A stretch of 64,000 nucleotides of DNA from Nemertoderma westbladi (lineage: Eukaryota; Animalia; Xenacoelomorpha): positions 62,001 to 126,000 of the forward strand of contig JAUCBJ010009149.1 of NCBI GenBank assembly GCA_032718475.1. The letters run 5' to 3'. The position numbers and the translations under genes were made by a program. Shown here one piece after another: positions 13,670-44,963 of the stretch (the stretch's first letter is position 1; the number at the start of each line of letters is the position of its first letter). The notes under the pieces were generated by a model. It was not told the origin of the DNA, made no database searches, and worked only from the letters and a program-made list of their open reading frames with translations.

Positions 13670-16600
13670 TGTAAAAGCTTTTGCGTCATTAACCGGTTAT
13701 TTTCCCTTAAAGTACTCTGTAGTTGGTTTGCCAGGCATAAAAAGGCCGTGTCCTTGCTGTACTGGTGTTTTAGAGGACATAAAAGTCATTTCTTCTGTAT
13801 TTGAACTGTATTTGTACTTTAGAGGACATAATCTGCAATTTCATGATGTAAAAGGCTCGCTACTCTTGAAAACAGTGTCGCTACCATGACGACGGCTAAC
13901 GGCTGATATTGCCACGTTGCAGCTTTCCGTATCGGCCAATAGAATTTGAGTGGGCGTTGATTTCGACCTATCCTGAGCTACTGAACTGAAATTTTCCTAT
14001 CTCACTGCTCATCCTCTGTGTTGAACGGGAGCTTCGTGGAATAAGTGTAGTTGGTATTCTCGTAATCACGAGTTTTTCAAAGCCACGAAAGAACGGCTTT
14101 ATAGTGTTTTGTGCTTTTCTGCTTTTTAGCTCAACACTAGTAGGTTTAATTATAAGGACATATATCCTTTAACTGTAAAACTCATCTAACAACACTCTGT
14201 GAATATCACTCTGCAAACACTGAAACATTGCAAACTCATAACAATCAGTGTTCAGTTGTTGTTTTATACTGCTATTTGCTGTCGGTTATTCATTATATTT
14301 GTGGATGAATTATTATATTTGGAATAACGAGAAACAACCCCGAAACCCAATATTCTTGATATACCGAAGGTAAGAGAGAAAGGTTACAGATAAACGATTG
14401 TGACTTATGTTAAAGTGGTTTGAAGTGAATCTAATGTTATTTGATAGACCCTACATGAGTCAGCCTGTGTTCCTTTTATATGTGACTAAAATCAGTGAAG
14501 ATCGGCAGATTAGTGTGCAGTATTGTGCAGCATTGTGTATGCGTGAGTCTGTTAAAGAAGCATTTCCTAAAGAATGCGCCATATATGTCAATTATAACTA
14601 AACCATTTCGTTGTGAGTAGTTTAAGTCATAACTCTGTTTCTATAGATAGAGCGCCACGTCCTAAAGGAACTGTTAATATTCCCCGAAGGTGAATAATAT
14701 TGTCAGAGATTATATAATACTGTCAGTCGAATAATACATTAGGCTTACATAGCAATAAGATTAAACCGTCGAACACAATCTCCCGGGTATAACCAGCGGG
14801 TGAATGATCGCGCACGGATTGGTTTCGACTAGTGTAGTGAATCAAATATTTGTCATAGGCTAAAAAGCGATTTAATATCTAGAAGACATCATAATTTGGC
14901 GGGTTAAACTGCCAAAGGTCTGAAAGCGCGAACATTAAAGGATATATCTTCTTTATTGCAGTAAGCAATAAAGTTGAAAGTACCGGTCAACCGGTAAACC
15001 TGAAAGGTACATCTGTAGGTCAGTAGGCCCAATTGCAAGAACCGGTACTGCTGTAGGCCCGTAGGTCCAACTGCAAGAACCGGTACTTCTGTAGGTCCGT
15101 AGGCCTAACTGTCCTAACCGGTACTTCCCGTATAAGTACATTAGTATTATTCGATTTGATTGTTGTATACCGGTAGGCTGTTTAAGAGATTAGGGACTGT
15201 ACACCCCTTGTTTCTTTTGGAGCTTACTTATTTCTGTCAAGTTTTATTTGTTTGTAGGCCAGTATTGAACAGAAGACGTGTAAGCCTGATCAGATTGTAC
15301 AGACAATTTGTAGGCTGAGCTATTGTCTGATTGCTGTTAAGTCTGAACGGATTGCAGTGTGTGTAGAGCACCTGTCCGATTAAGTACGGTTAGGAAGTAG
15401 GGGCAGCGAATGCTGTAAGGTAAACCCCCCAGCTAAAGAATAAGTCGTACTACTGGGTTAGAACGCATACTCCCTAATCATTTCGGAGTCTGCATGTCCT
15501 GTGGTTTATTTAGGCTTGAGAGTAGTCTGCCATCGTTTAGTCTGTACTTTGTTTGTGTAAGTCTGTACGGGTAGCGTATAATATTATTTAGATAATTTGT
15601 AGGCTGGATAGTTGTCTGGCTGTTATTAGGTCTGAACGGATTGTAGTGTGTGTAGAGCACCTGTCCGATTGAGTACGGTTAGGAAGTAAGGGCAGCAAAC
15701 GCTGTAAGGTAAACCCCCAGCTAAAGAATAAGTCGTACTACTGGGTTAGAACGCATACTGCCTAATCATTTCGGAGTCTGCATATACCGTAGTTTGTTTA
15801 GGCTTGATAGTAGTCTGTCGGTATTTGGTCTGCATTTTGTTTGAGTAGTTTGTACGCGTAGCGTAATATTTATTATTCAGAGTTTATGCGATTATTCGCA
15901 ACATTCATATTCCCCAAGTTTGTTCCTACAGTAATTGTGTTTGTTATACATACCGTTATAGTTAAATTAACCCCGGTACTACACGGGCTGCTTGGCGTAG
16001 GTAAAGACTGGTGATTTTGTGCACCGGTTACTCCAGCAGATGCCGTGGTTCTTTTAGCTGTTCAAGTATATTTAACTACTGATTATCTGTTGTACAAGTA
16101 CTCGTACCTAATTTAGGGTTTAGTGTACAGTGCTTTCCGAAAGTAATTATTGTAGGCATTATATTTGTGTTGTAAAGTGGTTGATAGGCACCTTCGATTA
16201 GCTCTATTAACTTCTAGGTAGGAACACTCCGTGATACATAACGTAGAACCTATAGCGATACGGCTATAGGTCGTCAGGCGGTGGTATTTTCCTATCTAGA
16301 CAACGCAGTGTATTTACTACTACTTATTATTTTCAAATACCGTAGTACCCTGTCCGTTGTAATAACCAGATTTCTAACCCTTTGTTAGGCTGGTTTGTAG
16401 ACTTCTTGTAAAATTACCCTAAAAATTCGTATTTGTGTTTTTTGTAAATTTTTGTGTTTATTTAGAGATTGTAATCTCAACCCGAATTGTACGTAATTTG
16501 TAGTATTAAGTAACTTAGGTAAATTAGAATTATTTGTTTTAGTGTCATATAAGTAACACTTCACTGAAAGCGTACCGCTTTGTGCAGTGATTACCCCCCA

Positions 16601-17312
16601 GAAATAATAACATTTATTTCAACATTGAAAAACCCAGTAAAACGGGTATATATATATTATAAATCAAATCTAACGATTTATAAATAGTAGGCCTACCATA
16701 CAACCATTAGGTCTCAATATCAGTTGGACTACTGCTCAAATAACGGTAATAAAGTAAGTAAAGTAACAAAGTAACCCTAAAGTACAGAAATTCAATTATT
16801 TAAAATAATTGATATACCGGTATTTACGATAGGCCTATTATCTTTATTTCTGTAAATTTAGGCTGAAATTATACCGGTACTTGTAATTAATTCTAGTTCA
16901 GAATTACATATACTACAAACTGTAAGCTGTATACCGGTATTCCCGATAGGCCTATTATATATTTATATATATTTGTGCTAAAATTATATCGGTATTCTGA
17001 GATAAACCTAGTCTGTAATAATACTTATATATAATATAAGCATACCGGTATTCTAATATATTATATATATATATCACTCTACATTGAGTAGCAGTGTCGG
17101 TAGTTAATTGCTAGGCTAGTAGTTGATACTGAATTACTAGACTTGCTTGAACTGTAATATAGCAGTAGGCATTCAACTGTACATATAAATATGTCTGATA
17201 CTAAGCAGAACCTGTCAGACAGTCTATTAGATGTAACTATCTGCGACTCGGATAGAGGTGTAGAACCCTCTAGTCGTAAGTCCAGTTCACCTCCCACTGT
17301 GAGGAAGGTCAT
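13670..17312 (+). mobile_element. BEL/Pao copy E: 5' LTR (13670-14934), long leader and gag start (17191), 3' truncated
   Basis: LTR runs TGTAAAAGC...GCGCGAACA; leader and MSDTKQNLSDSLLD start match copy A up to KVI at about 17312. Confidence 0.9.
14935..14947 (+). promoter_or_regulatory. Non-tRNA primer-binding site of copy E (TTAAAGGATATAT)
   Basis: Directly follows the LTR end; exact reverse complement of 14160-14172 in the same LTR. Confidence 0.8.
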
Positions 17313-18607
17313 AACAAAATACAGACCAAACGCTGGCAGACTACTATCAAGCCTAAATAAACTACAGTATATGCAGACTCCGAAATGGTTAGTTAGTATG
17401 CGTTCTAAACCGAGTAGTACGACTTATTCTTTAGGCGGGGATTTACCTTACAGCTCTGGCTGCCCCTACTTCCTAACCGTCACTTTATCGGACATACACT
17501 CTACATGCACTGCAATCCGTTCAGACCTAACAACAATCCGACAACAATCCAGCCTACGAATTATCTGTACAATCTGAGCAGGCTTACACGTCTTCTGCTC
17601 AATATTAACTTACAGGTAAATAAAACCGACAGAAATAAGTAAACTATACAAAGGAATGAGGGGTGATCAATCCCTAATCCCCTAGCAGCCTACAATATAC
17701 AATATCACAATCGAAATAGTACTGCTGTACCTGTACTGTTGTAAGTACCGGTTCCAGTGGTTAGGTAGTTAGGCCTACAGGTTACCGGTCGACCGGTACT
17801 TTAGCTTTATTGCTTACGCCGCAATAAAGAAGCAAACTGTTATTGTTCTTACCAGAACAATATTAAACTGTATTTATTGCTGTATTGCCTACACTGCAAT
17901 CAAGAATTTTACAAACTGTTATTGTTCGCGCTTTTAAGACCTTTGGCAGTTTAACCCACCAAATCTATATGTCTTCTAGGTTATAAATCTACTCCAGCCT
18001 ATGACAAATATTGAACACCTATAATAATTCTAACATTAGCCGAAGCCAGTCTGTGCGCGACCATTCACCCGCTGGATATACCCGGGAGACTGGATTCGGA
18101 TGCTTTAATTTGATTGCGGTGCAGGCCTACCGTACTATTCGATTGATCGTTAATATATAATCTCTGACAAATATTATTCACTTTCGGGAAATATTAGCAG
18201 TTCCTTTAGGACGTGGCGCTCTATCTATTTAAACAGAGCTATGACTTACACTATACACAACGGTATGTCTTATAGATCACCAAAGTGCATTCTTTAGGAA
18301 ATGCTTTGTTACTCGGTCAAGCACACACAGACTATTGCACACAACTGCACACTGAATTGCCGATATTCACTGATTTTAATCATATATAAAGAGAATAACA
18401 ACCGACATTTGTAGGGCCTATTAAGTAGCATTGAACTCATTACAAACCACGATAATGTATGTCGCAAATTGTTATATGTAACCGGTCTCTCTAACCTTAG
18501 TGTATCAAGAAGATTGGGGTTTCGGATCGTTATCAATATTCTTCCCAATAATAATATGTAAATGAACGATACAATTAACAACACAGTAAATAGCAGTAAA
18601 TAATGCT
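17313..18607 (-). mobile_element. BEL/Pao 5' leader plus truncated 5' LTR (17923-18607), probably the 5' end of copy D
   Basis: 17923-18607 is nearly identical to 43645-44328; 17313-17922 is reverse-complement leader; same orientation as the gag at 11519-13669. Confidence 0.85.
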
Positions 18608-22717: not shown

Positions 22718-23059
22718 AACATTATAATTATTCGATAATTTTATATTGGCACATTTCACCCTCCATTGGGTACCTATCCTTTGATATATATATTACTCTG
22801 GTATAAATATTTAGGATACACGCAGCATGTGACACATCCATGTAACTATAATGATTCGAACTAAATCGATACTGACGATATCCATTTTGATAAAATTATA
22901 TAATTTGAAAAAAACGACAGTTACAAAGAGTAGGGAATCTTCCTTTGGTTTAGGTTCTGTATATACGGCACAAGTAATATAAATATGTTCATAAAATACG
23001 GCCAAAATTAACTTCAATAGGCGAGGTATTTCTTATCTATTATGGCATCACAAAACAAA

Positions 23060-23293
23060 CAGTCGGCGGAGTCCGGAGGCGACCCGAAGGCTCCTCTTTC
23101 GATTGCTGCTACCCGAAATTAGGGGTGGCGGTGGGCGCTACTTACTCCTAACCCTTGTTTTGCTCCCAGTAATTTAACTGGTATACTCATTTTATCGACA
23201 CAAGTGGATGAAAGGCTGAGTGGACCCTAGCGGGGCTGAACCTACAACCAGTGGATGGCAGGCCCAGCGCTCCACCAACTGAGCTACACCGCC
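23060..23293 (-). mobile_element. tRNA-derived SINE with Meta-domain-like core
   Basis: Minus strand has A box tagctcagttgg and B box ggttcagccc, then ctcagcctttcatcc...gtcgataaaatgagta. Confidence 0.7.
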
Positions 23294-23395
23294 ACACAGT
23301 TTAATAAATTGGTGTTATTATTTTTTTTTGATGCATAGTTCCCATATTATTTGATGTATATAGAATTTGTTAGTATCCCAAAAAGCACATATTAT

Positions 23396-23814
23396 GGTAG
23401 TGTAACACTGCGGAGTAATTCGGAAGTGTAACACTGCGGAGTAATTCGGGTAGTGTAACACTGCGGACTGCGGAGTAATTCGGGTAGTGTAACACTGCAG
23501 AGTAATTTGGGTAGTGTAACACTGCGGAGTAATTCGGGTAGTGTAACACTGCGGAGTAATTCGGGTAGTGTAACACTGCGGAGTAATTCGGGTAGTGTAA
23601 CACTGCGGAGTAATTCGGGTAGTGTAACACTGCGGAGTAATTCGGGTAGTGTAACACTGCGGAGTAATTCGGGTAGTGTAACACTGCGGAGTAATTCGGG
23701 TAGTGTAACACTGCGCGCTGCGGAGTAATTCGGAAGTGTAACACTGCGGAGTAATTCGGGTAGTGTAACACTACGGACTGCGGAGTAACTCGGGTAGTGT
23801 AACACTGCGGAGTA
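23396..23814. repeat. 27-bp minisatellite (GTAACACTGCGGAGTAATTCGGGTAGT), left segment, about 15 units
   Basis: Direct tandem repeats with occasional +7 (ctgcgga duplication) and shortened (cggaagtg) variants. Confidence 0.97.
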
Positions 23815-24998
23815 TGTAAAAGCTTTTGTGGGATAACTGATTCGTTTGCCTTGCTAACCAGTTCCCCCCCCGTCGCTAGAATACTCTAAAAAGGGATCTA
23901 TAACTCGAATAGCACAAGCTACCGGCTGATTGGCTGATTCGCTGTGCGAAGGGATCTGGGCTACGTTTGATTGTCCAGCTAGCTTGGGAAAGTATCTCCC
24001 AATAGAATTTGAGTTGATTTTGATTTCGACCTATCACAGATCTACTGAACTGAATTTTCCTATCTTTATGCTCTTTCTCTGTGTTGGGTGGAAGCCTTTG
24101 TAAATAAGGTTATTCTTATCAGTTTTCAGTGTTGTTGGTCTTTCTTTCCTAAGCCAGGAGAGAACGGCTTGTAAATATTTTGTGCTTTTCTGTTTTTAGT
24201 CTAACACTAGTAGGCTTAATTATAAAGGGCATATATCCGTTATCACTGGGTAACTCAATGTTATCACAACACTTAATATCAAACTAATGAACTTAACGCA
24301 CACTGAATTACTGTGCATACTTTTATATTGTTATACTGCTATTTACTGTCAGTTCTTCATAATATGGTTGATGAATTATTATATTTGGAATAACGATAAA
24401 TAACCCCGAAACCCAATATTCTTGATATACCGAAGGTAAGAGAGAAAGGTTACATATAACGATTGTGACTTATGTTAAAGTGGTTTGAAGTGAATCTAAT
24501 GTTATTTGATAGACCCTACATGAGTCAGTCCGTGTTCCTTTTATATATAACTAAAATCAGTGAAGATCGGCAGATCAGTGTGCAGTATTGTGCAGCATTG
24601 TGTATGAGTGATACTGATAACGAAGCATTTCCTAAAGAATGCGCCATATATGTGAATTATAACTAAGCCATATTGTTGTGAGTAGTTTAAGTCATAACTC
24701 TGTTTGTATAAATAGAGCGCCACGTCCTAAAGGAACTGTTAATATTCCCCGAAGGTGAATAATATTGTCAGAGATTATATAATACTGTCAGTCGAATAAT
24801 ACATTAGGCTTACATAGCAATAAGATTAAGCCGTCGAACCCAATCTCCCGGGTATATCCAGCGGGTGAATGATCGCGCACAGATTGGTTTCGACTAGTGT
24901 AGTGAATAAAATACTTGTCATAGACTAAAAGTGATTTGTTATCTAGAAGACATCATAATTTGGCGGGTTAAACTGCCAAAGGTCTAAAAGCGCGAACA
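23815..24998 (+). repeat. 5' LTR of copy A (1184 bp)
   Basis: Differs from the 3' LTR by about 5 substitutions and 1 indel by eye; TATAAA at 24221, AATAAA at 24905. Confidence 0.97.
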
Positions 24999-25009
24999 AT
25001 AACGGATAT
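24999..25009 (+). promoter_or_regulatory. Non-tRNA primer-binding site of copy A (ATAACGGATAT)
   Basis: Directly follows the LTR end; exact reverse complement of 24233-24243; repeated at 25068-25079. Confidence 0.8.
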
Positions 25010-25429
25010 TTAGTCTGTATTGCAGTGTAGGCATTAAATACAGTTTAATATTGTTCTGGTAAGAACAATAACGGATATAGCTTTATTGCAGTAAGCAATA
25101 AAGTTGAAAGTACCGGTCAACCGGTAAACCTGAACGGTCAATCTGTAGGTCAGTAGGCCCAACTGCCAGAACCGGTACTGCCGTAGGTCCGTAGGTCCAA
25201 CTGCCAGAATCGGTACTTCAGTAGGTTGGTAGGCCTAACTGTCCTAACCGGTACATCCCGTATAAGTACATTAGTATTATTCGATTTGATTATATATGCC
25301 GGTAGGTCTTAATAATTAATCGGGGACGCCTGGTTTTTATTGGGATTTTACTTAGGCCTATTTCTGTCAGTTTTATTTATTTGTAGGCCAGTATTGAGCA
25401 GAAGGCGTGTAAGCCTGATCAGATTGAGC

Positions 25430-25975
25430 AGACAATTTGTAGGTTGAACTGTTGTCTGATTGCTGTTAGGTCTGAACGGATTACAGTGTGTGTAGAGCCT
25501 GTCCGATAAAGAACTGTTAGGAAGTAGGGGCAGCGAATGCTGTAAGGTAAACCCCCAACTAAAGAATAAGTCGTACTACTGGGTTAGAACGCATACTACC
25601 TAATTATTTCGGAGTCTGCATGTCCTGTAGTTTATTTAGGCTTGAGAGTAGTCTGCCATCGTTGAGTCTGTACTTTGTTTGTGTAAGTCTGTACGGGTAG
25701 CGTATAATATTTATTTAGATAATTTGTAGGCTGGATAGTTGTCTGGCTGTTATTAGGTCTGAACGGATTGCCGCGTGTGTAGATCACTTGTCCGATAAAG
25801 AACGGTTAGGAAGTAGGGGCAGCGAATGCTGTAAGGTAAACCCCCGACTAAAGAATAAGTCGTACTACTGGGTTAGAACGCATACTACCTAATTATTTCG
25901 GAGTCTGCATATACCGTAGTTTGTTTAGGCTTGATAGTAGTCTGTCAGTGTTCGGTCTGCATTTTGTTTGAGTAG
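25430..25975 (+). repeat. Tandem duplication (about 290 bp x2) in the retrotransposon leader
   Basis: aatttgtagg...gcagcgaatgctgtaaggtaaacccc...ggagtctgca occurs twice; also twice in copy E (about 15305-15845). Confidence 0.9.
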
Positions 25976-27321
25976 TTTGTACGCGTAGCGTAATATTTAT
26001 TATTCAGAGTTTATGCGATTATTCGCAACATTCATTCCCCAAGTTTGTTCCTACAGTAATTGTGTTTGTTATACATACCGCTATAGTTAAATTAACCCCG
26101 GTACTACACGGGCTGCTTGGCGTAGGTAAAGACTGGTGATTTTGTGCATCGGTCACTCCAGCAGATGCCGTGGTTCTTTTAGCTGTTCAAGTATATTTAA
26201 CTACAGATTATATGTTATACAAGTACTCGTACCTAATTTAGGGTTTAGTGTACAGTGCTTTCCGAAAGTAATTAGTGTAGGCATTATATTTGTGTTGTAA
26301 AGTGGTTGATAGGCACGTTCGATTAGCTCTATTAACTTCTAGGTAGGAACACTCCGTGATACATAACGTAGTACCTGTAGCGATACGGCTATAGGTCGTC
26401 AGGCGGTGGTATTTTCCTATCTGGACAACGCAGTGTATTTACTACTACTTATTATTTCAAATACCGTAGTACCCTGTCCGTTGTAATAACCAGATTTCTA
26501 ACCCTTTGTTAGGCTGGTTAGTAGACTTCTTGTAAAATTACCCTAAAAAATTAGTATTTTGTGTTTTTTGTAAATTTTTGTGTTTATTTAGAGATTGTAA
26601 TCTCACCCGAATTGTACGTAATTTGTAGTATTAAGTAACTTAGGTAAATTAGAATTATTTGTTTTAGTGTCCTATAAGTAACACTTCACTGAAAGCGCAC
26701 CGCTTTGTGTAGTGATTACTCCCCAGAAATAATAACATTTATTTCAAACATTGACAAAACCCATTAAAACGGGTATATATATATTATAAATCAAATCTAA
26801 CGATTTATAAATAGTAGGCCTACCATACAACCATTAGGTCTCAATATCAGTTGGATTACTGCTCAAATAACGGTAGTAAAGTAAGTAAAGTAACCAAGTA
26901 ACCCTAAAATACAGAAATTCAATTATTTAAAATAATTGATATACCGGTATTTACGATAGGCCTATTATCTTTATTTCTATAAATTTAGGCTGAAATTATA
27001 CCGGTACTTATAATTAATTCTAGTCCAGAATTATATATACTACAAACTGTAAGCTGTATACCGGTATTCCCGATAGGCCTATTATATATTTATATATATT
27101 TGTGCTAAAATTATACCGGTATTCTGTGATAAACCTAGTCTGTAATAATACTTATATAGTTATATATACTATAAGCATACCGGTATTCTAATATATTATA
27201 TATATCACGCTACACTGAGTGGCAGTACCGGTAATTAATTACTAGGCTAGCAGTTAATACTGAGTTACTAGACTTGCTCAGACTGTAATACAGCAGTAGA
27301 CATTCAACTGTATACATAAAC

Positions 27322-30300
27322 ATGTCTGATACTAAGCAGAACCTGTCAGACAGTTTATTAGATGTAACTATCTGCGACTCAGATAGAGGCGTAGAACCGT
27401 CTAGTCGTAAGTTCAGTTCACCTCCCACTGTGAGGAAAGTCATCCCTCCAGTAGTAATAAAAGAACCTAGGCTGGTCCAACATCGTAGGTCTATCATAGG
27501 CACTCGAGCTCAGGTCAAACGGGACCAAGAAGCAGCGGAACAGCAACAACCCGCGAGCCAAGAACTTATTTCTCAGCGGCCCGACAGCTCCAGTAGTGAA
27601 GATACGGTAGAACTGACACCCGAACACGGAGCAAGGATGACGGATGAGGCTTATTCAGATCCCCTTCTCATCCTTCCTGCAGCCGTACTCACTAGGTTAT
27701 TGATCGCTGTGGAAGAACACCAGATCGATTGGGCGAAAAGCCAGCGTTCAACTAGAGATAGTTATGCTGGATACACAAGGGAAGAACTGAAGTCCATGGT
27801 CGAGTCGCAATGGAACTTCCCCGGACCCGGACTCCCGTTTGATTTATCCGAAGCTGCCTGGGAAGACATAAACCGGATGGGAGTAGCCAAAGAAACCATC
27901 GATCCAGCTGTGTGGAAGAGGTCCGCAGCCGGATACGCACAGGGATTCTTCAGCTCTATGGAGCGAGTAGAAAAACAACTTTTACAACAACCTCAAGGAC
28001 CTCAAGAGCAGGGACAGCTGCTTTATCAAGTAAGAGAAAGAATTCTACGAATCAGGTTAATATTATCGGCCTTTGAGGAGGCTTCTAAACGAAGACAAGA
28101 CACGTCGTTGCAAGTCGCCGTAAAGACTTGGTTTCAAAGGGTGAATCTCCAGGTTCAAGGAACATCTCAGTGGAAAGCTCAGCTGGAGGAGCGATCGGCC
28201 CATGGGGAATCAACAGACGCTACTTTTTCCCAAGTGGAAAGTGAAGCGACGGCAGAGAAGCCGCATAAGAGGGATGCCATTGACATCTATCTGTCGGACT
28301 ATCAACGTTTTTTAGGTGATGACGAATTGAGGAGAAGGTTAGATGGACTTAGCCCTAATAGCGAAGGAACCAAGCTTGTGTTGGATGCCATCGATGTGGA
28401 AATGAGGGCTGCGAACCAGGCTAAATTCGATGAACAACTCCGCATCGTTAGAGAACAAGAAGAACAAGTAAGGAAAAAACGTATAGAAGACAGAAAGGCA
28501 GCAGCAAAAGCAGAGGCAGAAGCAAAAGCGGCAGCGGCAGAGGCAAAAGCGGCAGCGGTGGCGGAAGCAGAACGGAGAGCGGCTGAAGAGATCGCCCAAC
28601 TGGAGTTGGAAAATCTTCAAGAGAAGCAAGACGACTTCAGTAAACAGTTAACAGTTAGTAATATGCAGATGATGAATCGATCTACTCCCAAAAGACAGGG
28701 ATATACATCATCTGAAGAAGGCGATACCACCGATACTGAAGGCAAAGGAAATAGATCTCGTCTAAGCAGACGTAAAAGAACATTCCAAATTGCCTGATTT
28801 GCCTCCAGCTGTTAGAAGGCAACTAAATAACACCAACTTAGGTAGTACAGAGCCCACAGACCAAATAATTAAAATAGAAAGACTCCCTACTATAGTAGAT
28901 GAGCCTGAAATAATTAGGCCTGTTCTTGAAATCACCCCTTCGGTGATAGACACACCTGTGCTCCCTGAAGCCACCTCTAAATTCCCTCTACATAGCACTA
29001 AGCTACCTGTGCCCAGTAGAACTGCCCAGGAGACAGTTCAGGTCCTGGACCCCGAGCGAAATATTCATAATTTGTCGCCCGTTGTCCCTCGTCCGCCCGC
29101 TACAACGTTGGCGACTCCCGCTTCGGCGGTCGAATGGGTGGACGAGAGACGGCGGGGGATGGATATCCTGCTCGGGCAGATGCAGGAGACTGTCCAGCAA
29201 TTCAAGGGCACAGTAAGGGAAAGTAGGCTAGAGTTGCAAGAAGTGCAGCAAAGTATCGCGCTAGAACGAGATAAATTAGTAAATACGCAAAAGGGTATAC
29301 CACCACCCTCTGTAACAATGTGTCAACCTGTTAGGTCTGAAGTATCTCATGTGCAAGGTGTGGAGCCTACACGCATATATACTGCTAGCGAAGCAGAAAC
29401 TCCTATAGTAAACCCTATTAAGGGTAATTATAGACCTGTTGATAATGACATTCCATATAGAACTGATCATAATCCGAGAAATTTATATACCGATAACTCG
29501 ATATTAAATAACACGATGGCCCAAGAAAGTTTTACGCGTCAAATGGCTAGAACCGAAGCCCCCGGCAAGCGGTAAAGGTGGGAGAGATCGTCAAATTCAA
29601 TGGAGATGAGATGAAATGGTTACCTTTTAATGAATATTACAAAGATAACATACAGAATTCTGTACTATCTAATGGAGAAAAACTTAGATACCTCATCGAG
29701 TGCTTGGAAGGATCTCCCAAGTTAATGGCGTTAAAGTTTATTGGACATCCAGACGGATTAAGACAAGTTTGGGATACACTAAACATCAGGTATGGTAATA
29801 GGAATAATATCGCTGGGTACTTGTATGCAAAATTAGTAGCGCCCCGAAAGTTTATTAGTAGCGGGATTATCGAGTTTTCCGATGAGATCCAGGAGATCTG
29901 CAGATAATTAGATTGGCTAGGTAAGTCTCATGAGTATCAGAACACTATGGTTATTAGAGCAGGGGCTTCTACTTTACCGAAAGGTGGAGTAGGTACACGC
30001 TGGGATAAGAAAGTGTTATATATGATGGAACAACAACGACGAGACCCTACCATGGCTGATCTCATGTCATTCCTAGATGGAGAAGTGAAATTACAGCTCC
30101 TGAAACTGTCTAGGGAGAAGACACCGGAAAACAAGGTAAGTGAAAAACCCGTTTCTAGGAGAAAGGTAACACCACTGTGTTATACAGACGACGGCGAAAG
30201 CCAGACTTCTCAAGGAGAAGATAGCGGGAAAGACACTGATCGATCTTATTACGTAAATAAAATTCCTAAAGATCAGGTGAGTAAATTCAAGTCTCGATCA

Positions 30301-30684
30301 AATGACAGGAGAGAACAGGTAAGAAAAACTCCTCCTACGTCTCCCAAGAGAATTCCGGTGAGAAAGCCCGAAGAAAGGGCAAGCGTACACAATGTGACTC
30401 AAAATAAGGTAAGTAACATCAAACCGAAATGTGCGCTGTGTGACGGGACCCACCGTTTGAATATGTGTGATGAATTCCTGAAGAAGTCATTAACGGAGAG
30501 ACGCGAAGTCATGTGGGATAAGCGGTTATGTTATAATTGCCTCAGACAAGGACACCAACGGCGTACCTGTTTCTCTGACATAAGGTGTGCAAAGTGTGGT
30601 GCGAAACATCATATCTTGTTGCACGCTGAATTCGATCGAAATAGTCCGAATCAGGTAAGTGATTCCGAGCTACATGTCAACTAA
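27322..30684 (+). pseudogene. gag: BEL/Pao gag with long N-terminal extension; frameshifts near 28785 and 29560, stop at 29905
   Basis: Four ORF-track pieces are contiguous in sister copies (RTSHRQKWPDLPP; ARQAVKVGE; CRQLDW); DUF1759-like region and three CCHC knuckles. Confidence 0.9.
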
Positions 30685-33314
30685 AACAGCGAGATAATCC
30701 AGTTCGAACCAAACGGATTTGCTTAAGTATACTGAGCACTTATTTCGATCCATTGGGATTTATTAGCCCAGTTATATTGATTGCTCGTAGTTTGGTACAA
30801 CAAATGTGGCTTGAAAACCACTCATGGGACGATCCACTTAAGGGGGAATTATTGAAGCAGTGGATGAAATGGGAAGATTCTCTGCCAGCTATCGAGGATT
30901 TTATAATTTCCCGTTCATATTTTGGTCATGTTCTCCCTACGTATTCCTATCAACTCCATGTGTTTGGAGACGCCAGCGATATGGGAATAGGTATAGTAGC
31001 CTATCTAAGAGTGGAAACTCCGGATGGAATCAAAGTCGCCCTGGTTACTTCTAAGGCATTAATCAACAACAAGTTGAAAGTTCCTCGAGCGGAGTTAAAA
31101 GCGGCTCTATACGCTACAGCCATCGGCCGGAATGTAACCGAACAGATTGACTATCCATTAGAGAAAACTGTCTATTGGACCGACGCTTTACTCGTGTTAG
31201 AGTATATAACCAATGAAGTCTGTCAGTTCAGCGTCTTTGTTACCAACAGGGTAGCCATCATACTTAGTCGCACGACGATGGACCAATGGAGACATTGCCC
31301 CGGAACTATTAATCCAGCAGACATCGCGTCCCGAGGAGCGACTCCAAAGGAATTGGTAAATACTCCCGAATGGTTAGGAGGACCCGACTTTCTCTACAGG
31401 GAAGAAGAAGAATGGCCTCCTCATCTCACAACAGCAGAGATCAGACAGGCCAAGGGAGCGGAGAAAGTTAAACCCAAAACTCGAGCGAGTAAATCGAAGT
31501 TGTTTAAACCTGCGGTTGATCTATCTGTATTATTTACTTCCGGAGGGGATGCTTTGGATCAGAAACCCACCGCCACGACTAAAGAAGTCTTGGAAATCCG
31601 TGACAAGGATTGGAAATCTGGAATACCAGATATTTCGCAAGGACTCTCACCTCTCTTGCAGAGAGCGATACGTCACTACAGTTCCTGGAATCGGCTCTGT
31701 AAAGCTGTCACCTATCTGAAACGATGTTTTCATCATCGTTACTCCGGGACAAAGACCAATAGTGATGATGCTCCATCAACATCTGCACGAGTCCATGTTG
31801 TTAAAGACCTTCCCCAATACAAGATATCCGACAGGTTTCTAAAGGAGAAGATCAGTTACCAGGAGCATGATGAAACCAACAAACAGATGCTGAGACTTCT
31901 ACAATGTTATGAGGATTCCGATAAGTATTTCCTGTTGTTAAGAAATCCGCAGATGCGCTTAAGGGATCGCTTCTCTAGTACCATGATAGATGGGTTAATA
32001 CGTGTTGGAGGCAGGCTTACCAACGCCCCATTATCCTTTGACACTAAGTTCCCCATACTCATTAGAAATCTTGACATACAAATCAAGATAATTGTAGATG
32101 TTCATAGCAAACTGTACCATGCTGGTAGAGAACGAGTTCTGAGCGAAATTCGAACTCGCTACTATTTTTATAAACCCCGTAGGGCTCTGAACCAAGTTCT
32201 TAGGAACTGCATACCCTGTAGGAAAGCATTCAGTAGGCCTTTAACACAGCGAGAGGCAGAATTACCTAGGGAAAGAGTAAGCTTCTATGAACCACCCTTT
32301 ACTAATACCGGTGTGGATTTATTTGGCCCTATTGAAGTATATCGTGCCCGGACTATAGTCAAGAGATGGTGTGTCATCTTCGTTTGTATGACTTGTAGAG
32401 CTATCCATCTCGATATGGTAAACGATCTATCCACCAACAGCTTCGTGTTGAGTTTACGACGACAGATTGCTCGCTTCGGAACCAGTAACACGATGAGATC
32501 GGATAAGGGAACGAACTTCATTGGCGCCAACAACGAAATTCAAGCTTACGTAAAGGACTGGAACAAAAGACAGGTGGACGATCAGCTAAGGATAACAGCG
32601 TCTAGCTGGACCTTCAACGCCGCCGACGCCCCTTGGTGGGGAGGAAGTTGGGAGAGATTGATTAGGAGCGTGAAGACTGCATTCCACTTTATTGTGCCTT
32701 GTCGCGCTTATCTCACCGACGAACTATTGCGGACGTTAATGGAGGAAATCGCCGCCTATCTCAACGAAAGACCGCTTATGCCAGTCTCTTCAAATCCTGA
32801 TTCCCTGGAAGCGCTAACACCCGCGCACTTTCTACTGAAGAAACCCGTAGCCATGCTCCCACGATCGGAGATCACAGACGGAGACGAGTACTGCCGTCGA
32901 ACCTGGCAACTTATGCAGTTGCTATCCCGTCGTTTCGCTGACCATTTCGAGAAACATTACCTGCCCACTCTACAACTTCGAACTAAGTGGTTTGCGCAGC
33001 AAGAAAACGTCAGCGCTGGAGACATGGTGCTTATTGTGGACCCCGATCTCCCACGTAAGCGATGGCAAACAGGACGTATCATCGAGACGCATATCTCGAG
33101 CGATGGTTTGGTGCGATCAGTAGAGCTCGTCGTCATGCGGCGGAACTTTAAGAAACCAGGGATAGTCTTTGAGACTCAACAGCTCAATCGCCCAGTGGGA
33201 TGTTTATGTTTACTGGAAAGAGACAGAGAGCTCTCCGGAAACTATGGAAGGCAAGAAACTCTTCCCACGACCACTTCCCTAATCCAACCGACATCTAGGG
33301 ACTCCCCAACTTGA
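30680..33314 (+). CDS. pol: BEL/Pao pol remnant: RNase H (Pao A17 region) plus integrase
   Basis: TKR..LS..STYFDPLG, LHVFGDAS, PRAEL.A, WTDA, NPADIASRG, HHCC zinc finger, GVDLFGP, SDKGTNF, GGSWERLIRSVK, DGLVRSV. Confidence 0.93.
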
Positions 33315-34981
33315 TATCGTTCGGAGTGGGCGTGTGACTCTATTATTTTATATTATTTTATTATTTTTATATTTATGTATGTATTACTATGTAATTTTAT
33401 TATAATCGTTTTATTTAATTTAGTAGAATATTATTTAGCGATTATTTTGTAGAATAGTGCAATATATTCGTGTTTATTACGTACGTAATTACTTATATTA
33501 TATTTAGTGAGACGGCGAAGAAATAATTATTTTTTCTCTTTCCTTACTGTCCGTATTATATTATAAATACGTAACTACAGTAAGATGAAATGTCCGTACT
33601 TACTAAAGTACAATAAAGCCACTACTATATTTAAGTATTATTGGTAGGCAGAGTATTAGGAATGCAAAGTTCAGATCCTCGTGTCTCGGCTAAACCAAGC
33701 TCTGGGTAGACCTTGGAAACGACTTGCCTCTTCACACTGACATTGCTTCGTGCGATATTGCTCTCATACCGTATATTAAATAATACATATAGTAGCGTGA
33801 TGTCCCTTTAACAGTAGCGTATAATGCAAAATAAATCTGTTAAACCCTTTGACCATCTGTAATTCTAGTCGATTAAGATATCGCGGCACCCACCGATATA
33901 CTTGAAAGACAAATTCTAGAATCAGTGGTTAACGTCCCCAGACAAGTTCTGGAATAAATCGGTGCCCATCTCAAATATTAATTATTTAATATTTGCAAAT
34001 CTAATAAATCAAAATCTGTAAAATTCAGATCCTGGTTCCAGATTCAGATCCAGATTCTGGTCAATTAAGATATCGTAGCATTTACCGATATTCTTAAAAA
34101 AGACAATTGTCATAGAATTAAGGATCTTGTGTCCCTAGACATGTTCTAGAATCAAAATATGTCCATTTAATTATCAAATAATAAAATTTCAGGGAATAAA
34201 TTTAAATTCATGCCTTTTAATGAATTTAATAAATTGCCATTTTTACGCAATTTATAACATTCCCAAAATTCCATTAATTAATAGATCAAGGGAGCGGAGA
34301 TTTATCTTATTATGCATATGAGTGTGCGAAAGTCTCCCAAACATAGTCAATAGCCGATAAAATTCATAAAGTCATGTATAAAACAGGACATTGACTATTA
34401 AAGAATTACTATTAAATAACATCCCAGATCTGTATGCATTGGAATTACCCTAATTCTACCGCTAGCTTTGCATAATGTCACCATAGCAACAACCACGCTA
34501 GAATTAGAATTGAGTTAAAAGAACAATAGAAAGCTTGTCCCATTGAATAGCATAGGGAATAAATAGCGCACTACTAGTATCCAAGGATACATAATAATAC
34601 AGTGACATTCTGGAAGGCATTGACTAACGGACAAATGGCCCGAATGTGCGTAGTTGTGACCAGTTGTGTGGTATTTGTGAGTTTATAGGTGAATGTTACT
34701 GCTAAAGTGTGTTTACAGTAGCTAGTCGCAATCGTAAAAGTAACCTAACTCTCCAAGGAATACCTGAAGTACATCTAAGCCTTTGGGACGGACAGTTGAG
34801 TGACTTGTGCCGGTTATCGTTGTCGTTGTACGGCTACGTCGTTGGCGAAAGTATAGCGACAGCGGTACATCGGCGCTGAGAATCTCATACTGTCCGGGGG
34901 CAAGGGAGAAATAGGCAGCGACGCCCGCTCGCCTAACGATATATAAACTCATTATAATATTGGTGAACTCGTATAGCAGAT

Positions 34982-37900
34982 ATGACTGAATTAATAGAAG
35001 ATGATCTTGGTATCAGGGAGAGATATACTCTACCTTTACAAGCGTTTGTCGATAGCTTGATACGCGGCGACGCTGATCCAACTACTACGGAGGACGATGG
35101 TCGTTATATCGAACCGCCAATGTCCCAGGAGCAACTTACGCGTGAATTGGACTATAGAAAGTTCACGGCTCGCTATACGCATCGTAATGGTATGTATATG
35201 GACTTCTTGACCACTGGTCATCCTATTGATTTACACGATACGGACGATGTAGACACCGAAAGGGAAATGGTTTTATTTAAATATCATACCCAGCGGAGTC
35301 GAAACGATAAATCGAGAATAGAACACGAGAACTCTATTCGAAACAAACTCGAAAGAGAAGACGTTGAAGAACCTGATAAACGTAACGGTTTCAACGATTA
35401 TCTAGAATTCTTAAGAGAGACCTATCTCAATGTTGCCAGTCAACAAAACCTCGAAACTCGATATCCTCAAGGTATACATCCAGATCCTATGATGGAACTC
35501 AAACGGCTCTATTTTACGATGATGTATCTTACTGCTGATCGACCGCTACCTGTCGTTCCAGATAGCTTCGAACAGATGGAGGAATATTGTAAAACTGGAG
35601 AGCGATCACCCGCGTTTCCTCTTCAAGACGTGCGTCTTTGGTATTACTGTGACGAATGCCCTAGACCTAACCAGCAAATCGAAAGGCATAAACATCCTCG
35701 GAGACGTTGCGCTAAACACAGTTTTACGCGATATACTTATGGGAGTTTCGAGCGTAACCTTTTCGACGTATCACCTACGGTCGCGCGCCTTAAGCGATCA
35801 GTGAATAAACCCATGATCAGAGTTCCGGAATACTCGGTCAGACCTCCCCATTCCCAAGTGATACCTCAAACTCTAGATCCTAATAGTATTACGGATCCTC
35901 CCGAACTGTACTCACTGTTCAAAGATCTGGTGTTACCTGAACAGTTGATTGGTGGCACTCCGGTAGTGGGTTCGTTGGATATTCGCCAACCTTACCTCGC
36001 TGGACTAGGACGCGGTCATCTAATATCACCGTTTAACCCCTACAACCGTCCTGGCCTTCCTCCGATCCAACCTGTTACAGAAGTCGAAGAGAGCGTGATA
36101 CGAAATGCATTAGACGCTATTCGGCAGAAAATCGGGAAAGGAACTTACGATTGCTTGGAGAAACGTAAATTGCAACAACAAGTCCAAGCGGTGAAAGAAC
36201 TAGCTTTACCCCAGTTCGATAGAGAAATACAAAATCTAGAGGAGGACATCGAACGTGGACGAACCTACTCTTTACAGGAATTCCTGGACGAGCGCTTGCA
36301 ACAACAAGCGGAGGAAAATCAGCTCGAGGAGAGACATATAGAGCTGACTGAGAGGGAAGAAGCAGCTTTAGCCCAACCAGAAGCTCAAATTCTCGTGACG
36401 GATCTCTATTCCAAAACGATTCTCCACCCCTCGATGGTTCCTCATTTTAAAGACAAGCTCTTTGCTACGGTACAGCCTCAACCGGTTAACACCGATCTCA
36501 GATCTCAAGAGCTCGTTGCTGACGCTCCCATGCTACAACGTCCACCCGTCGAGGCTGCTCGTGTCGATGGCGTACTTGTTGAGCCTCCGGACATTAGAGC
36601 GGATCTTGTCCGTCGCATGGTGCACGATGTTAACATACGCGCTAGACCTTTGCCGGACTCATTTTATGGAATTAAGGATCATCCTTATTACGTCAATTTA
36701 AAGCAATATTACATGGTGAAACCAGAAGATCCTACGCATAGTCTGAAGTTTCTACCATTGATCAATCCTCTCGACCTCGTTGAACTCGAACAACTACAAA
36801 AACATCTAGATCAGCTAGTTAAACTAAACTCATTTCGAAAACCGTATAATATTTCCAGAATAGAGAAAGAAATATCACCCCCGTACAATCTTGATGGATT
36901 CATTAAAACTCGATTGGTACACTGGAATCTTGACGTATTATTCGAGGAAGAAAGAATAAAACGATATGGAGATGTGGAAACCTATACTACACAATGCTTA
37001 AAGTATAGAGATTTACCCAATGCTAGCGAATGCGCTACTTTGTGGCATCCAGTGGGAATGACTCTCGAAAACGCCACTAAAGAATGGAACGAGACTCTTA
37101 ATGTTATCGAGATGTATGGCGTTGTTACTTATGACAACGAAGGTAGCGTTCCGGTGGGAGAACTAGGAACTACGCGAATGATACATATACGGGGACTCGC
37201 TGGTTCTACCCACGTATTCACTCGAGCGTGTTCCGACGTGATCGATTATTCTTTTGAAACCCTTACGGAGACACAAAAGAAACTTCGACATGGACAATTC
37301 GAGCTCGCGCAACGTTACGTCACTGACACCGAGCGCAAACCGGCCATGGGTATCGACGGATCAATGTTACCCCAACCCGTGCTCGAAATGTTGTTTAACG
37401 AAAGAATCCTAAAAATCGGCTCAGCTGTTTATGGAGATCTCCAAAACGACTTCCGGAATATGGAAAACATTCCATACCCTTTCGTTGATACTCAGCTGAT
37501 TGCTCCTTGGGCCGAGGTTTCTTTCACACTATGTATGCCAATACACCCAGCGACATTACTAAAGTACAACGGACATCCATCGGACATCTTGCCTTTCAAG
37601 AATATGGATGGAACTTCAAAGTTGGAAATCCTATCAATTACCAGCAGGTATATGGAGATCATTACTCCCGTTTATATTTTGACGGACCATTAACTGCGCC
37701 TGGTGCAGTATATAGCTTTATGAGTGTTCCACTTCGCCCTTCCTTAGCTATATACACGATCTTTGAAAACGCAGCACTTGCCGGTTGGCTAGCCGATGTG
37801 TGCAGTCGTACCATACGCGCTCACCCGTTAATACTTGGAACTAAACTCGCCAAGTTAGACGAACACAATAAGTTCATACGTTTCGAATGTTTCCGGCGCT

Positions 37901-39213
37901 TTCTGACTCCGTTCCGTAACGTCGATAGTCAGTTCAAGGACCGCGCGCTGACCAAGCTCAGTCTTAGAGACTCAGCTGCGGAGAAACTGAGTAGCGCTGG
38001 ATTTGCCGTCTTTCAAGACGTTTGTATACAGAACCTACATTCATCCGTTATACAAAGACCCCGAATATCTACAGGTTATTCTGTCGTGGAAATACAGACA
38101 GTGGGTCCACTTACGGAAACCGACACACCCACTTCGTCTATGCAGCTGGAGGATGAACCAGTATGCTTGGAATCAGAAGCGATTCAACCTACGGCTTCCC
38201 GGAGCAGTGACAATGATTATGTCATAGAGTGGTATCAAGGTCCACAGCGTCTCACAGCGTATGATTATCGACACGCTAACTACGTTTCCCGAAAACGTTG
38301 TCGATTATGCGCATCGAGAGACCACTTCACTCCTCTAGACTCGAGCGTACCTTGTTCCTATTTCCTCGAACAACCGATGATGGAAATATATTGTGCTTAT
38401 TGCCGGCTTAATAACTCTCATATATTTGCCGTCTGCCCACAATTTATGACTCAATGTCACTACTGTCAACTTAAAGGACATGAAAGTTACAATTGTCCCT
38501 TTAATCGCGATTTAGAAAGCGTAGACAAGATGATCACCCTGCGATACATCCGAGCTTGGGAAGCGAACGCCGATTTACATTGCGAATCCCGACATCGCTA
38601 TTACCCTGGACGAGCTTACGAGGGAGTTTACGCGTTCCATCCTTATCTATTCGCATCAATTGAACAGAAAACACGCGTACCAAGTTACGAGTTAATGAAG
38701 CGTGTTGGTGAGTGTATTTCCACCAAGTTTTGATTTTAAGCCCCTAATGATATAACCACATATCACCTGATCAATTTTATCCGTCAGGACCCTGAGTATG
38801 GCGACATCTTTGTGAACTCGCATCCTGAACTACAGGAAATATCTCGGCGACCATATGAATATCGAACCCGAGAACGCGAGCTGGAGAGAACCATTAAACC
38901 GAGAAAGTTCCTCACCACTCACGGTCCACCCACCGCTAGTGTCCAGACGACCCGTCAAGGACCCATAGGAGCTGCTGTCTTGAGACGCGCTCTAAAGGCC
39001 GTTAGACCTCACTCCACTGAGGTTGATATTAATCAACCAGGTACTTCGACCGGCGGGTATACCGATCGTAACCCTGCACCTTCTGATGCAATTATATTGC
39101 ACCCTTCGCCTAGGAGCTACAGCCCTCCTCGTAAAGTGGCTCGCCCCAAAGAGAAAATGACTCTTGCTAGCTTTAAAAAACTGCGTAAACGCCGTCCGCG
39201 CAAGAAAGACTAA
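34982..39213 (+). CDS. Extra 3' gene, predicted join(34982..37532,37565..38707,38741..39213), 1388 aa: unknown N-terminus, WRN/Mut-7-like DEDDy 3'-5' exonuclease, three CCHC-type knuckles, basic tail
   Basis: VVTYDNEG (ExoI), LPQPVLEMLFNERILKIGSAVYGDL (ExoII), FVDTQ, SIGHLA..YG and PL...AIYTIFE (ExoIII-like); CxxC..H..C clusters; two GT-AG introns of 32 and 33 nt restore a single frame. Confidence 0.72.
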
Positions 39214-39291
39214 CTGTTTAGAGTATTTATGTATATTAGAAATTGTGATTTTGTATATTTTATAGACTTAAATCCCATTTTCTGGGAGCGG

Positions 39292-40476
39292 TGTAAAAGC
39301 TTTTATGGGATAACTGATTCGTTTGCCTTGCTAACCAGTTCCCCCCCCCGTCGCTAGAATACTCTAAAAAGGAATCTATAACTCGAATAGCACAAGCTAC
39401 CGGCTGATTGGCTGATTCGCTGTGCGAAGGGATCTGGGCTACGTTTGATTGTCCAGCTAGCTTGGGAAAGTATCTCCCAATAGAAGTTGAGTTGATTTTG
39501 ATTTCGACCTATCACAGATCTACTGAACTGAATTTTCCTATCTTTATGCTCTTTCTCTGTGTTGGGTGGAAGCCTTTGTAAATAAGGTTATTCTTATCAG
39601 TTTTCAGTGTTGTTGGTCTTTCTTTCCTAAGCCAGGAGAGAACGGCTTGTAAATATTTTGTGCTTTTCTGTTTTTAGTCTAACACTAGTAGGCTTAATTA
39701 TAAAGGGCATATATCCGTTATCACTGGGTAACTCAATGTTATCACAACACTTAATATCAAACTAATGAACTTAACGCACACTGAATTACTGTGCATACTT
39801 TTATATTGTTATACTGCTATTTACTGTCAGTTCTTCATAATATGGTTGATGAATTATTATATTTGGAATAACGATAAATAACCCCGAAACCCAATATTCT
39901 TGATATACCGAAGGTAAGAGAGAAAGGTTACATATAACGATTGTGACTTATGTTAAAGTGGTTTGAAGTGAATCTAATGTTATGTGATAGACCCTACATG
40001 AGTCAGTCCGTGTTCCTTTTATATATAACTAAAATCAGTGAAGATCGGCAGATCAGTGTGCAGTATTGTGCAGCATTGTGTATGAGTGATACTGATAACG
40101 AAGCATTTCCTAAAGAATGCGCCATATATGTGAATTATAACTAAGCCATATCGTTGTGAGTAGTTTAAGTCATAACTCTGTTTGTATAAATAGAGCGCCA
40201 CGTCCTAAAGGAACTGTTAATATTCCCCGAAGGTGAATAATATTGTCAGAGATTATATAATACTGTCAGTCGAATAATACATTAGGCTTACATAGCAATA
40301 AGATTAAGCCGTCGAACCCAATCTCCCGGGTATATCCAGCGGGTGAATGATCGCGCACAGATTGGTTTCGACTAGTGTAGTGAATAAAATACTTGTCATA
40401 GACTAAAAGTGATTTGTTATCTAGAAGACATCATAATTTGGCGGGTTAAACTGCCAAAGGTCTAAAAGCGCGAACA
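39292..40476 (+). repeat. 3' LTR of copy A (1185 bp)
   Basis: Preceded by PPT GGGAGCGG, followed by TSD GAGTA. Confidence 0.97.
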
Positions 40477-43400: not shown

Positions 43401-43644
43401 TGTAACACTGCGGAGTAATTGGGGTAGTGTAACACTGCGGAGTAATTCGGGTAGTGTAACACTGCGGAGTAATTCGGGTAGTGTAACACTTCGGAGTAAT
43501 TGGGGCAGTGTAACACTGCGGAGTAATTCGGGTAGTGTAATACTGCGGAGTAATTCGGGTAGTGTAACACTGCGGAGTAATTCGGGTAGTGTAACACTGT
43601 GGGAGTAATTGGGGTAGTGTAACACTGCGGAGTAATTCGGGTAG
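40477..43644. repeat. 27-bp minisatellite, main segment (about 115 units)
   Basis: Highly homogeneous tandem units; in register with the left segment across the TSD. Confidence 0.98.
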
Positions 43645-44963
43645 TGTTCGCGCTTTTAAGACCTTGGGCAGTTTAACCCGCCAAATCTATATGTCTTCTA
43701 GGTTATAAATCTACTCCAGCCTATGACAAATATTGAACACCTATAATAATTCTAACATTAGCCGAAGCCAGTCTGTGCGCGACCATTCACCCGCTGGATA
43801 TACCCGGGAGACTGGATTCGGATGCTTTAATTTGATTGCGGTGCAGGTCTACCGTACTATTCGATTGATCGTTAATATATAATCTCTGACAAATATTATT
43901 CACTTTCGGGAAATATTAGCAGTTCCTTTAGGACGTGGCGCTCTATCTATTTAAACAGAGCTATGACTTACACTATACACAACGGTATGTCTTATAGATC
44001 ACCAAAGTGCATTCTTTAGGAAATGCTTTGTTACTCGGTCAAGCACACACAGACTATTGCACACAACTGCACACTGAATTGCCGATATTCACTGATTTTA
44101 ATCATATATAAAGAGAATAACAACCGACATTTGTAGGGCCTATTAAGTAGCATTGAACTCATTACAAACCACGATAATGTATGTCGCAAATTGTTATATG
44201 TAACCGGTCTCTCTAACCTTAGTGTATCAAGAAGATTGGGGTTTCGGATCGTTATCAATATTCTTCCCAATAATAATATGTAAACGAACGATACAATTAA
44301 CAACACAGTAAATAGCAGTAAATAATGCGGCGAAAAGCAGTTTACGTCAGGGTGCTTAATCAGGTGCCTGACAAGCAAGATAACAGTTTGATGATCTTAT
44401 AATTAAAGACGCTCTAATGTTAGAAAACATTCCACGGCCGGTGTTCTAGGCGTGGGGGAAACGTCAGTACTGAATCCTGTGATTCTGCTGTACAGCTTTT
44501 ACACAAAGAGGAGATCTCTCATTGGTCGAACTGGCTGAGCCGAACAAAGAACCAAATCTCCTGGCAAAAAGCTCCACGTGGACACAGCTGATAGATGTCG
44601 TCATTTGAGCTGAGCAGAACAAAGAACCAAAGCTCCGGGCAGAAAGCTCCACGTGTACAGCTCAGCTGTTAGCTGTCGTCATAGTAACTACACTGTTTCA
44701 AGAGTATTTCAGCTTTTGCGTCATAGAATTGCTAATTATGTCCGCTAAAGTACACATACAGAATGAATGGCCCTCCATGTCCACTAAAACACCGGTACAG
44801 TAAGGAAACGGCTTTTATGTCCGTTAAAACACCTACAGAGTACTTTACGGGAAACATAACCAGCTAATTCCGCAAAAGCTTTTACACCGCTCCCAGAAAA
44901 TGGGATTTAATTATATAAAATATAAAAAATCACAGTTTCTAAAATATAAAAATACTCTAAACA

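Follow-up and report, generated by a model that had tools for sequence, protein, structure and literature searches.

What does a retrotransposon carry in the downstream part of its long terminal repeat (LTR), between a stretch that may prime its own reverse transcription and the site at which that primer would bind? A locus in Nemertoderma westbladi raises this question. The window that we analyzed, the whole 64,000-nt stretch of contig JAUCBJ010009149.1 from 62,001 to 126,000 (assembly GCA_032718475.1; all coordinates below are window positions), is animal DNA with many LTR retrotransposons, among them a 16.7-kb BEL/Pao element at 23815-40476 on the plus strand, here called element A. A first-pass annotation had described a conserved, co-varying structured RNA of about 600 nt with group I intron-like motifs at coordinates within the downstream two thirds of its 5′ LTR. 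We assign a probability of roughly 0.58 to a different reading, in which the alignable downstream part of the LTR (24334-24998, hereafter the block) is a likely R-U5 leader, comprising the repeat and unique-5′ portions, whose invariant islands and five hairpins are separate cis-acting signals rather than one fold or a ribozyme.

An open reading frame of element A at 30663-33314 encodes Peptidase_A17, Integrase_H2C2, and DUF5641 domains, and a sister element on the minus strand, element E, encodes DUF1759 (all Pfam). Because Peptidase_A17, DUF1759, and DUF5641 are BEL/Pao domains, we place element A in this group, which has been described as confined to metazoans (PMC3601003). The 5′ LTR (23815-24998, plus strand, 1184 nt) begins with TG and ends with CA, and is 99.5% identical over 1185 nt to the 3′ LTR (39292-40476). 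The element is flanked by a 5-bp target duplication, GAGTA, at 23810-23814 and 40477-40481. The block thus lies inside an LTR with TG and CA ends and a duplicated target site, upstream of the element's primer-binding site (PBS), the position of an R-U5 region.

An nhmmer profile of the block detected five copies in the window, all with E-values of 1e-217 or better, and no sixth copy at E ≤ 10. Two are in element A on the plus strand: A5′ at 24334-24998 (nhmmer alignment to 25001) and A3′ at 39812-40476 (alignment to 40477). Variant B, also on the plus strand, spans 14267-14934 (alignment to 14937), with a primer at 14162-14172 and a PBS at 14935-14945. Variants C and D are on the minus strand; C (17923-18598, alignment 18598-17920) belongs to an LTR truncated upstream and has PBS copies at 17922-17912 and 17843-17833, and D (43642-44320) belongs to the 3′ LTR of element E and has a primer-type sequence at 44390-44380. 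Since A5′ and A3′ are 99.5% identical and C and D 99.3% identical, the five copies amount to only three independent sequences (A, B, and C/D), with pairwise block identities of 93.7% (A-B), 77.5% (A-C), and 75.8% (B-C).

The block is framed by two short complementary sequences. The candidate self-primer ATATCCGTTAT (24233-24243, plus strand) is a perfect 11-nt complement of 24999-25009, and the PBS at that position, ATAACGGATAT (plus strand), adjoins the terminal CA of the LTR; a tRNA-type PBS beginning with TGG is not present. In variant B, the primer ATATCCTTTAA is perfectly complementary to the PBS TTAAAGGATAT, with complementarity reaching 13 nt, and in the C/D type the primer CAAACTGTTAT (in D, 44390-44380) is perfectly complementary to the PBS ATAACAGTTTG (in C, 17922-17912). 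Three variants with three different 11-mers give six positions altered on both sides, two between A and B and four between A and C/D, with no mismatch in 33 cells. This covariation is strong evidence that primer and PBS pair. A second, identical PBS copy in element A lies at 25068-25078 (plus strand) inside a 69-nt duplication, and both PBS copies, in A and in C, fit their own primer type.

The 69-nt duplication itself (24994-25078; 17927-17833 on the minus strand in copy C) is found in A and C and not in B, and carries the last bases of the LTR together with the PBS. It includes a good 5′ splice-site-like sequence, CTGGTAAGA (25056-25064), just upstream of the second PBS copy. All three primers lie 5-6 nt downstream of a common TTAATTATAA(A)G..CAT motif.

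The arrangement recalls Tf1 and Tf2 of Schizosaccharomyces pombe and the Tf1/sushi group to which they belong, with an 11-base LTR-derived stretch perfectly complementary to a PBS beside the 5′ LTR. As in that group, a tRNA-type TGG PBS is missing, and structure between primer and PBS would be expected to aid their pairing. According to a review, it is the first 11 bases of Tf1 that pair with its PBS, RNA structures make this pairing possible, and the RNase H cut falls between base 11 and base 12 (PMC7175516). RNase H cutting is the known primer-release route of the group (PMC7175516; PMC4600332). By analogy, element A would self-prime in the same way, with its RNase H probably releasing the primer by a cut just behind the 11 paired bases.

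Element A is BEL/Pao and not Ty3/gypsy, and its Pfam domains are the reason why we regard it as working like the Tf1-type family but not as a member of it. The two also differ in spacing: primer and PBS lie ~755 nt apart in element A, as against a distance in Tf1 that is reportedly roughly a hundred or so. In the limited set of papers searched, none was listed as describing self-priming in BEL/Pao.

How conserved is the block? The first-pass annotation had called it conserved across variants while the unique-3′ region (U3) is not. All five LTR copies in the window do align over the block, and the U3 of A is unalignable with that of C/D, so the claim stands as one about alignability. As one about rate it does not: A and C differ at 147/662 aligned block sites (22.2%), no less than the 52/254 four-fold degenerate sites (20.5%) that differ between A and E in gag-protease, where codon positions 1, 2, and 3 differ by 7.0, 5.6, and 20.1%. 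Given 22.2% against 20.5%, the block on average changes about as fast as synonymous sites. On the sequences compared here, what stands out is the unalignable U3 rather than any conservation of the block. A more general caution follows, that a block beside a variable U3 may look conserved while evolving at synonymous-site pace.

U3 and the 60-90 nt after the primer (23815-24232 and 24244-24333, compared with 44886-44321 on the minus strand) are unalignable despite a four-fold divergence of ~20%. The post-primer segment is scrambled even when A is compared with B, whose blocks are 94% alike. Both U3 and the post-primer segment were probably replaced as modules rather than having drifted.

Within the block, change is unevenly distributed. 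Ten islands of at least 11 nt, 151 nt in total, are invariant in all five copies. Invariant runs of at least 18 nt number six where 1.5 are expected (P = 0.001), and the dispersion index stands at 1.25 compared to 0.76 (P = 0.008). Changes are clumped inside the block, and we therefore consider discrete islands to be constrained while the spacers drift; between islands, drift would be almost neutral. One of the invariant sequences is the LTR terminus, AAAGCGCGAACA (24987-24998, plus strand), which is likely the integrase end-recognition site, by analogy with LTR ends in general. These observations bear on another account of the locus, a functionless block that aligns through shared descent alone, with U3 swapped by recombination and the islands arising by chance. 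Such a block would be expected to diverge as this one does, at 22.2% and not below the four-fold 20.5%. Six long invariant runs against 1.5 expected, ten islands unchanged in five copies, and three hairpins more stable than all 200 of their shuffles (below) make this account highly unlikely.

The block also contains local hairpins in its plus-strand RNA, as the first-pass annotation had proposed, and the helices that it listed are found where it had placed them: ccaatct (24840) with agattgg (24881), taga (24921) with tcta (24942), gcatt (24625) with aatgc (24638), ctctgttt (24698) with aaatagag (24710), aatatt at both 24741 and 24761, ggcgg (24962) with ctgcc (24973), and tcgcgc (24873) with gcgcga (24990). 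We describe five stem-loops, all on the plus strand. Stem-loop a (24466-24527) has a folding energy of -18.8 kcal/mol (z = -3.66; 0/200 shuffles as stable). Its outer stem, TGACTT/GAGTCA, becomes CGACAT/ATGTCG in C, with two two-sided changes; three inner pairs are broken in C, whose own fold is partly different. Stem-loop b (24625-24642), GCATTT/AATGC with its loop within TCCTAAAG, has -5.0 kcal/mol (z = -2.05; 8/200 shuffles as stable) and, being invariant in the five copies, allows no covariation test. Stem-loop c (24698-24717) pairs CTCTGTTT with AAATAGAG at -6.6 kcal/mol (z = -3.58; 0/200) and shows one change, U-A to U.G.

Stem-loop d (24833-24894) is a long stem under an invariant top, CCCGGG...CCAGCGGGTGAATG, with -21.0 kcal/mol (z = -1.75; 14/200 shuffles as stable). 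It adopts the same fold in A, B, and C, at -21.0, -19.4, and -22.7 kcal/mol, and pair 24846/24881 changes from U-A to U.G in B. Stem-loop e (24959-24980) pairs TTTGGCGG with CTGCCAAA at -11.5 kcal/mol (z = -4.06; 0/200) and ends 18 nt upstream of the LTR end; one of its C-G pairs becomes U.G in C, and G>A at 24965 in sequencing runs turns a G.U into an A-U pair, so that pairing is kept on the plus strand only. When A, B, and C are folded separately, stem-loops b, c, d, and e fold identically and stem-loop a agrees in part. Taken alone, the taga/tcta helix shows no stability (-1.1 kcal/mol, z = +1.06).

Variation within these helices is informative about the strand. Both compensatory pairs reported earlier are real: at 24843/24884, in stem-loop d, A and B have A-T where C has G-C (A-U to G-C as RNA), and at 24924/24942, A has A-T, B has G-T, and C has G-C. 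The 41 pairs of the first-pass annotation comprise 35 that are invariant, three variable on one side, two variable on both sides, and one broken in B. The five altered pairs that stay paired do so through G.U or a two-sided change on the plus strand. One-sided changes point to plus-strand RNA, because they yield G.U there, where the minus strand would be left with A.C.

The family is present in thousands of contigs from public DNA runs under the same organism label (12,684 in X1), and we drew per-site frequencies from four of these runs (X1, X3, X4, and X6). Across 24847-25000, counting differences of at least 5%, five variable sites fall in the helices named earlier, and all are pairing-compatible. 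At 24884, C occurs at 9, 11, 26, and 26% in X1, X3, X4, and X6, below the 21, 27, 64, and 71% of G at its partner 24843. As the sites are unlinked, these frequencies are consistent with pairing and no proof of it.

If the islands were mainly DNA, serving as host transcription-factor sites past the start or as enhancer-like modules together with an integrase end site, the hairpins would be incidental. Several features fit this view. With 35/41 pairs invariant, most "hairpins" could be simply unvarying sequence; two islands share the motif TCCTAAAG(A/G)A (24630 and 24726); palindromic sequence, a frequent property of protein sites, is seen in several islands (CCCGGG, ATTATATAAT); and neither strand of the block as a whole shows excess folding energy. 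The changes within stems speak against it, with pairing that holds on the plus strand only in five altered pairs and fails in one. So do the read data at 24965 (G>A) and 24843/24884, which are likewise pairing-compatible, and the three hairpins that beat all 200 shuffles. On balance, we consider a mainly DNA role for the islands unlikely.

Whether the hairpins form part of one larger structure is a separate matter. The plus strand of the whole block folds with z = -0.87, a stability matched by 5/20 shuffles, and the other strand with z = -0.47, no more stable than its shuffles. In folds of single sequences, ~60% of the altered pairs break in another variant (44/73 for the A fold on C), and the covariation in the helices named by the first-pass annotation is reached by 112/500 shuffles. 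The single co-varying structure of ~600 nt that it had proposed is not borne out by these results. Helices compatible with all three variants number 302 against 284.5 ± 31.6 under a null that keeps the conservation pattern; this lack of excess would also be expected of a block without function.

Some measures do exceed expectation. Helices with a two-sided change show a modest excess (29 against 17.9 ± 5.3; local helices, 9 against 3.5 ± 2.1), and the A fold tested on C has 29 compatible changes against 22.0 ± 2.9 (P = 0.011, changed positions fixed). An RNAalifold consensus contains 186 pairs, nine of them with two-sided changes, and its covariation is reached by 0/500 shuffles; we do not count it as support because those three sequences themselves went into deriving the structure. 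We conclude that some local hairpins are real and that a 600-nt architecture is not shown.

The first-pass annotation had offered, as its second alternative, a scaffold in which the entire 750 nt from primer to PBS forms one RNA that joins the two for fold-back priming. Primer and PBS covary across ~755 nt, so the two ends must meet, and Tf1 requires RNA structure between primer and PBS according to a review (PMC7175516). The A fold on C also has nine two-sided changes against 5.3 expected (P = 0.035). The reverse tests are null (P = 0.18-0.54), the global z-score is only -0.87, 44 of the 73 altered pairs of the A fold are broken in C, and on average the block diverges as much as four-fold sites do. 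Even A and B cannot be aligned over the 60-90 nt after the primer, and the best duplexes of this segment with the block differ in location among A, B, and D. In the energy model, the 11-bp end duplex forms regardless of the intervening sequence, so that its prediction proves nothing. Taken together, these points leave the scaffold an improbable proposition. Pairing of the post-primer segment with the GU-rich part of the block was also tried as a candidate and rejected, with P values of 0.08, 0.20, and 0.04 for duplex energies against shuffles and the best exact helices differing in place among A, B, and D.

The other alternative was a ribozyme: a group I-like or other self-cleaving RNA that cuts after 24243 and frees the primer with a 3′-OH. 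Three motifs had been judged P-, R-, and S-like, AAAATCAGTGAA (24553), TCAGAGATTATA (24768), and AGAAGACAT (24945). They are indeed invariant, but they are three of the ten islands and have no pairing partners. In the group I scheme, P pairs with Q to form the P4 helix and R pairs with S to form the P7 helix. CACTG, complementary to the P-like core, occurs only upstream, at 24244 and 24301, and not between 24565 and 24767, so that no complement lies between the P-like and R-like motifs. Neither the complements of the R-like GATTATA (TAATC, ATAATC, and TATAATC) nor those of the S-like motif (ATGTC and GTCTTC) occur anywhere in 24200-25120.

We also ran cmscan with lax filters at E ≤ 10; the stretches covered were 23000-26500, 24200-25030 in copy A, and 43600-44460 in copy D. 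The Rfam matches listed for these stretches (five, four, and one, respectively) are all weak and unrelated, and include no group I intron, GIR1, or other intron or ribozyme family in either copy. The families that do appear, DicF, tmRNA_permuted, Clostridiales-1, snoRNAs, mir-317, and Teg49, score far below their gathering thresholds and were rejected as chance matches.

The proposed cleavage site fares no better. A hairpin covers the 3′ half of the primer in copy A, GTTATCACTGGGTAAC (24239-24254, plus strand), with GTTATC and GGTAAC enclosing an ACTG loop (-4.5 kcal/mol, z = -1.77), and it does place a U.G pair (T24243.G24250) at the primer end, as a P1-like hairpin would. This pair is confined to A: the equivalent in B (14168-14179) is shorter, TTTA/ACTG/TAAA, retaining the ACTG loop without a U.G pair, and D has no equivalent. 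The likeness to group I introns and GIR1 is thus a loose resemblance of three motifs and a U.G pair in one copy's hairpin, against which stand the missing covariance-model match, the impossible P4 and P7 pairings, and a cleavage-site hairpin that is not conserved. An RNase H route, moreover, is already available to the element family, as in Tf1 (PMC7175516). A ribozyme that releases the self-primer is barely credible on these grounds; the idea fails testing, which spares bench work on a retrotransposon-primer ribozyme.

The preferred reading, an R-U5 leader with separate signals, draws on a comparison with retroviral and LTR leaders, whose R-U5 signals include U5 inverted-repeat stems, poly(A) hairpins, and packaging hairpins. 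The block resembles these in being a downstream LTR part more alignable than U3, with short conserved motifs and small hairpins close to the PBS, and it differs in length, ~665-765 nt being very long for R-U5. Conserved LTR modules, and stem-loops between the LTR and adjoining sequence, have been described, and BEL/Pao LTRs were left unmodelled there, as stated in the conclusion of that work (PMC3601003). One further candidate, a U5-leader type stem flanking the PBS, was visible by eye in A only and was rejected, since B and C do not preserve it.

A candidate poly(A) signal lies at 24819-24824 (plus strand), reading ATTAAG in copy A and ATTAAA at the aligned position in B, C, and D; in the four runs, G>A at 24824 makes up 56-82% of contig depth. 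The proposed leader would work as follows. The block would be transcribed as leader RNA between the self-primer and the PBS, the ATTAAA site and stem-loop d would mark the R/U5 border, and stem-loop e with the terminal island, both beside the PBS, would serve priming and integration. Elsewhere in the block, copy A has AATAAA at 24905-24910, where 93-100% of read depth has AATCAA, and the poly(A) signal may have shifted between 24819-24824 and 24905-24910.

Several points weigh against this reading. Copy A itself has ATTAAG rather than ATTAAA at the proposed poly(A) signal. A TATA-like TTATAAAG ~5 nt upstream of the primer is a poor fit to a primer made of the transcript's first bases. For the C/D type, the primer from D and the PBS from C come from two LTR copies 99.3% alike and not from a single intact element. 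Covariation rests on only three independent sequences, and the other directional fold tests give P = 0.24 (C on A), 0.29 (B on C), and 0.18 (C on B). The hairpin z-scores are optimistic, since the windows were chosen after looking, and the comparison with neutral sites assumes one shared history for LTR and gag, free of recombination. Finally, the invariant islands could act as DNA rather than RNA.

A bolder proposal can be built on the same observations, namely that this BEL/Pao family self-primes over the longest known fold-back (~755 nt), that a modular RNA block holds primer and PBS together, and that the primer hairpin, which changes in step between A and B and keeps its ACTG loop, is a switch for the site or timing of primer cutting. 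We regard this as distinctly improbable. The more modest reading, a separate-signal R-U5 leader, provides a calibrated view of an LTR leader of unusual length, from a BEL/Pao family that is very likely self-priming, and its ten islands and five hairpins are the natural places to map signals for priming, polyadenylation, and packaging, which are hardly known in BEL/Pao.

Two other explanations of the block were rejected. Protein coding is not indicated, as the longest stop-to-stop frame has 65 aa (24469-24666) and copy C carries a 7-nt deletion and a 10-11-nt insertion. An intron inside the LTR is not indicated either, with GT..AG ends in 0/15 of the joints listed (18 in total) and a primer that is contiguous in all three variants. 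Outside the window, we found no relatives of the block with a 22-mer from the most conserved island in viral contigs (0 matches) or with a 19-mer in metagenome contigs, where the single match, in an unrelated GC-rich contig of bacterial appearance, was set aside as chance.

In the rest of element A, a Pfam search (E ≤ 0.1) of the long frames in 27289-38733 detected no RVT_1 reverse-transcriptase domain. The frames at 34967-37693 (908 aa) and 37489-38733 (414 aa) match no family and could represent an additional gene, envelope-like or unknown. The long untranslated leader 3′ of the PBS contains a tandem duplication of ~288 bp, at 25430-26001 in A and 15301-15881 in B. Element A is inserted in a 27-bp satellite array (23352-23814 and 40477-43641) with a unit of approximately GCGGAGTAATTCGGGTAGTGTAACACT, and the same array adjoins the 3′ LTR of the minus-strand element E at 43642.

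Copy B and its leader (13929-17312, plus strand) meet copy C and its leader (18606-17313, minus strand) head to head at 17312/17313, an inverted duplication junction that either a rearrangement or an artefact of assembly could explain. An unrelated second pair of direct repeats (55893-56436 and 58771-59216), ~2.9 kb apart and 97-98% identical, probably marks a small LTR element.

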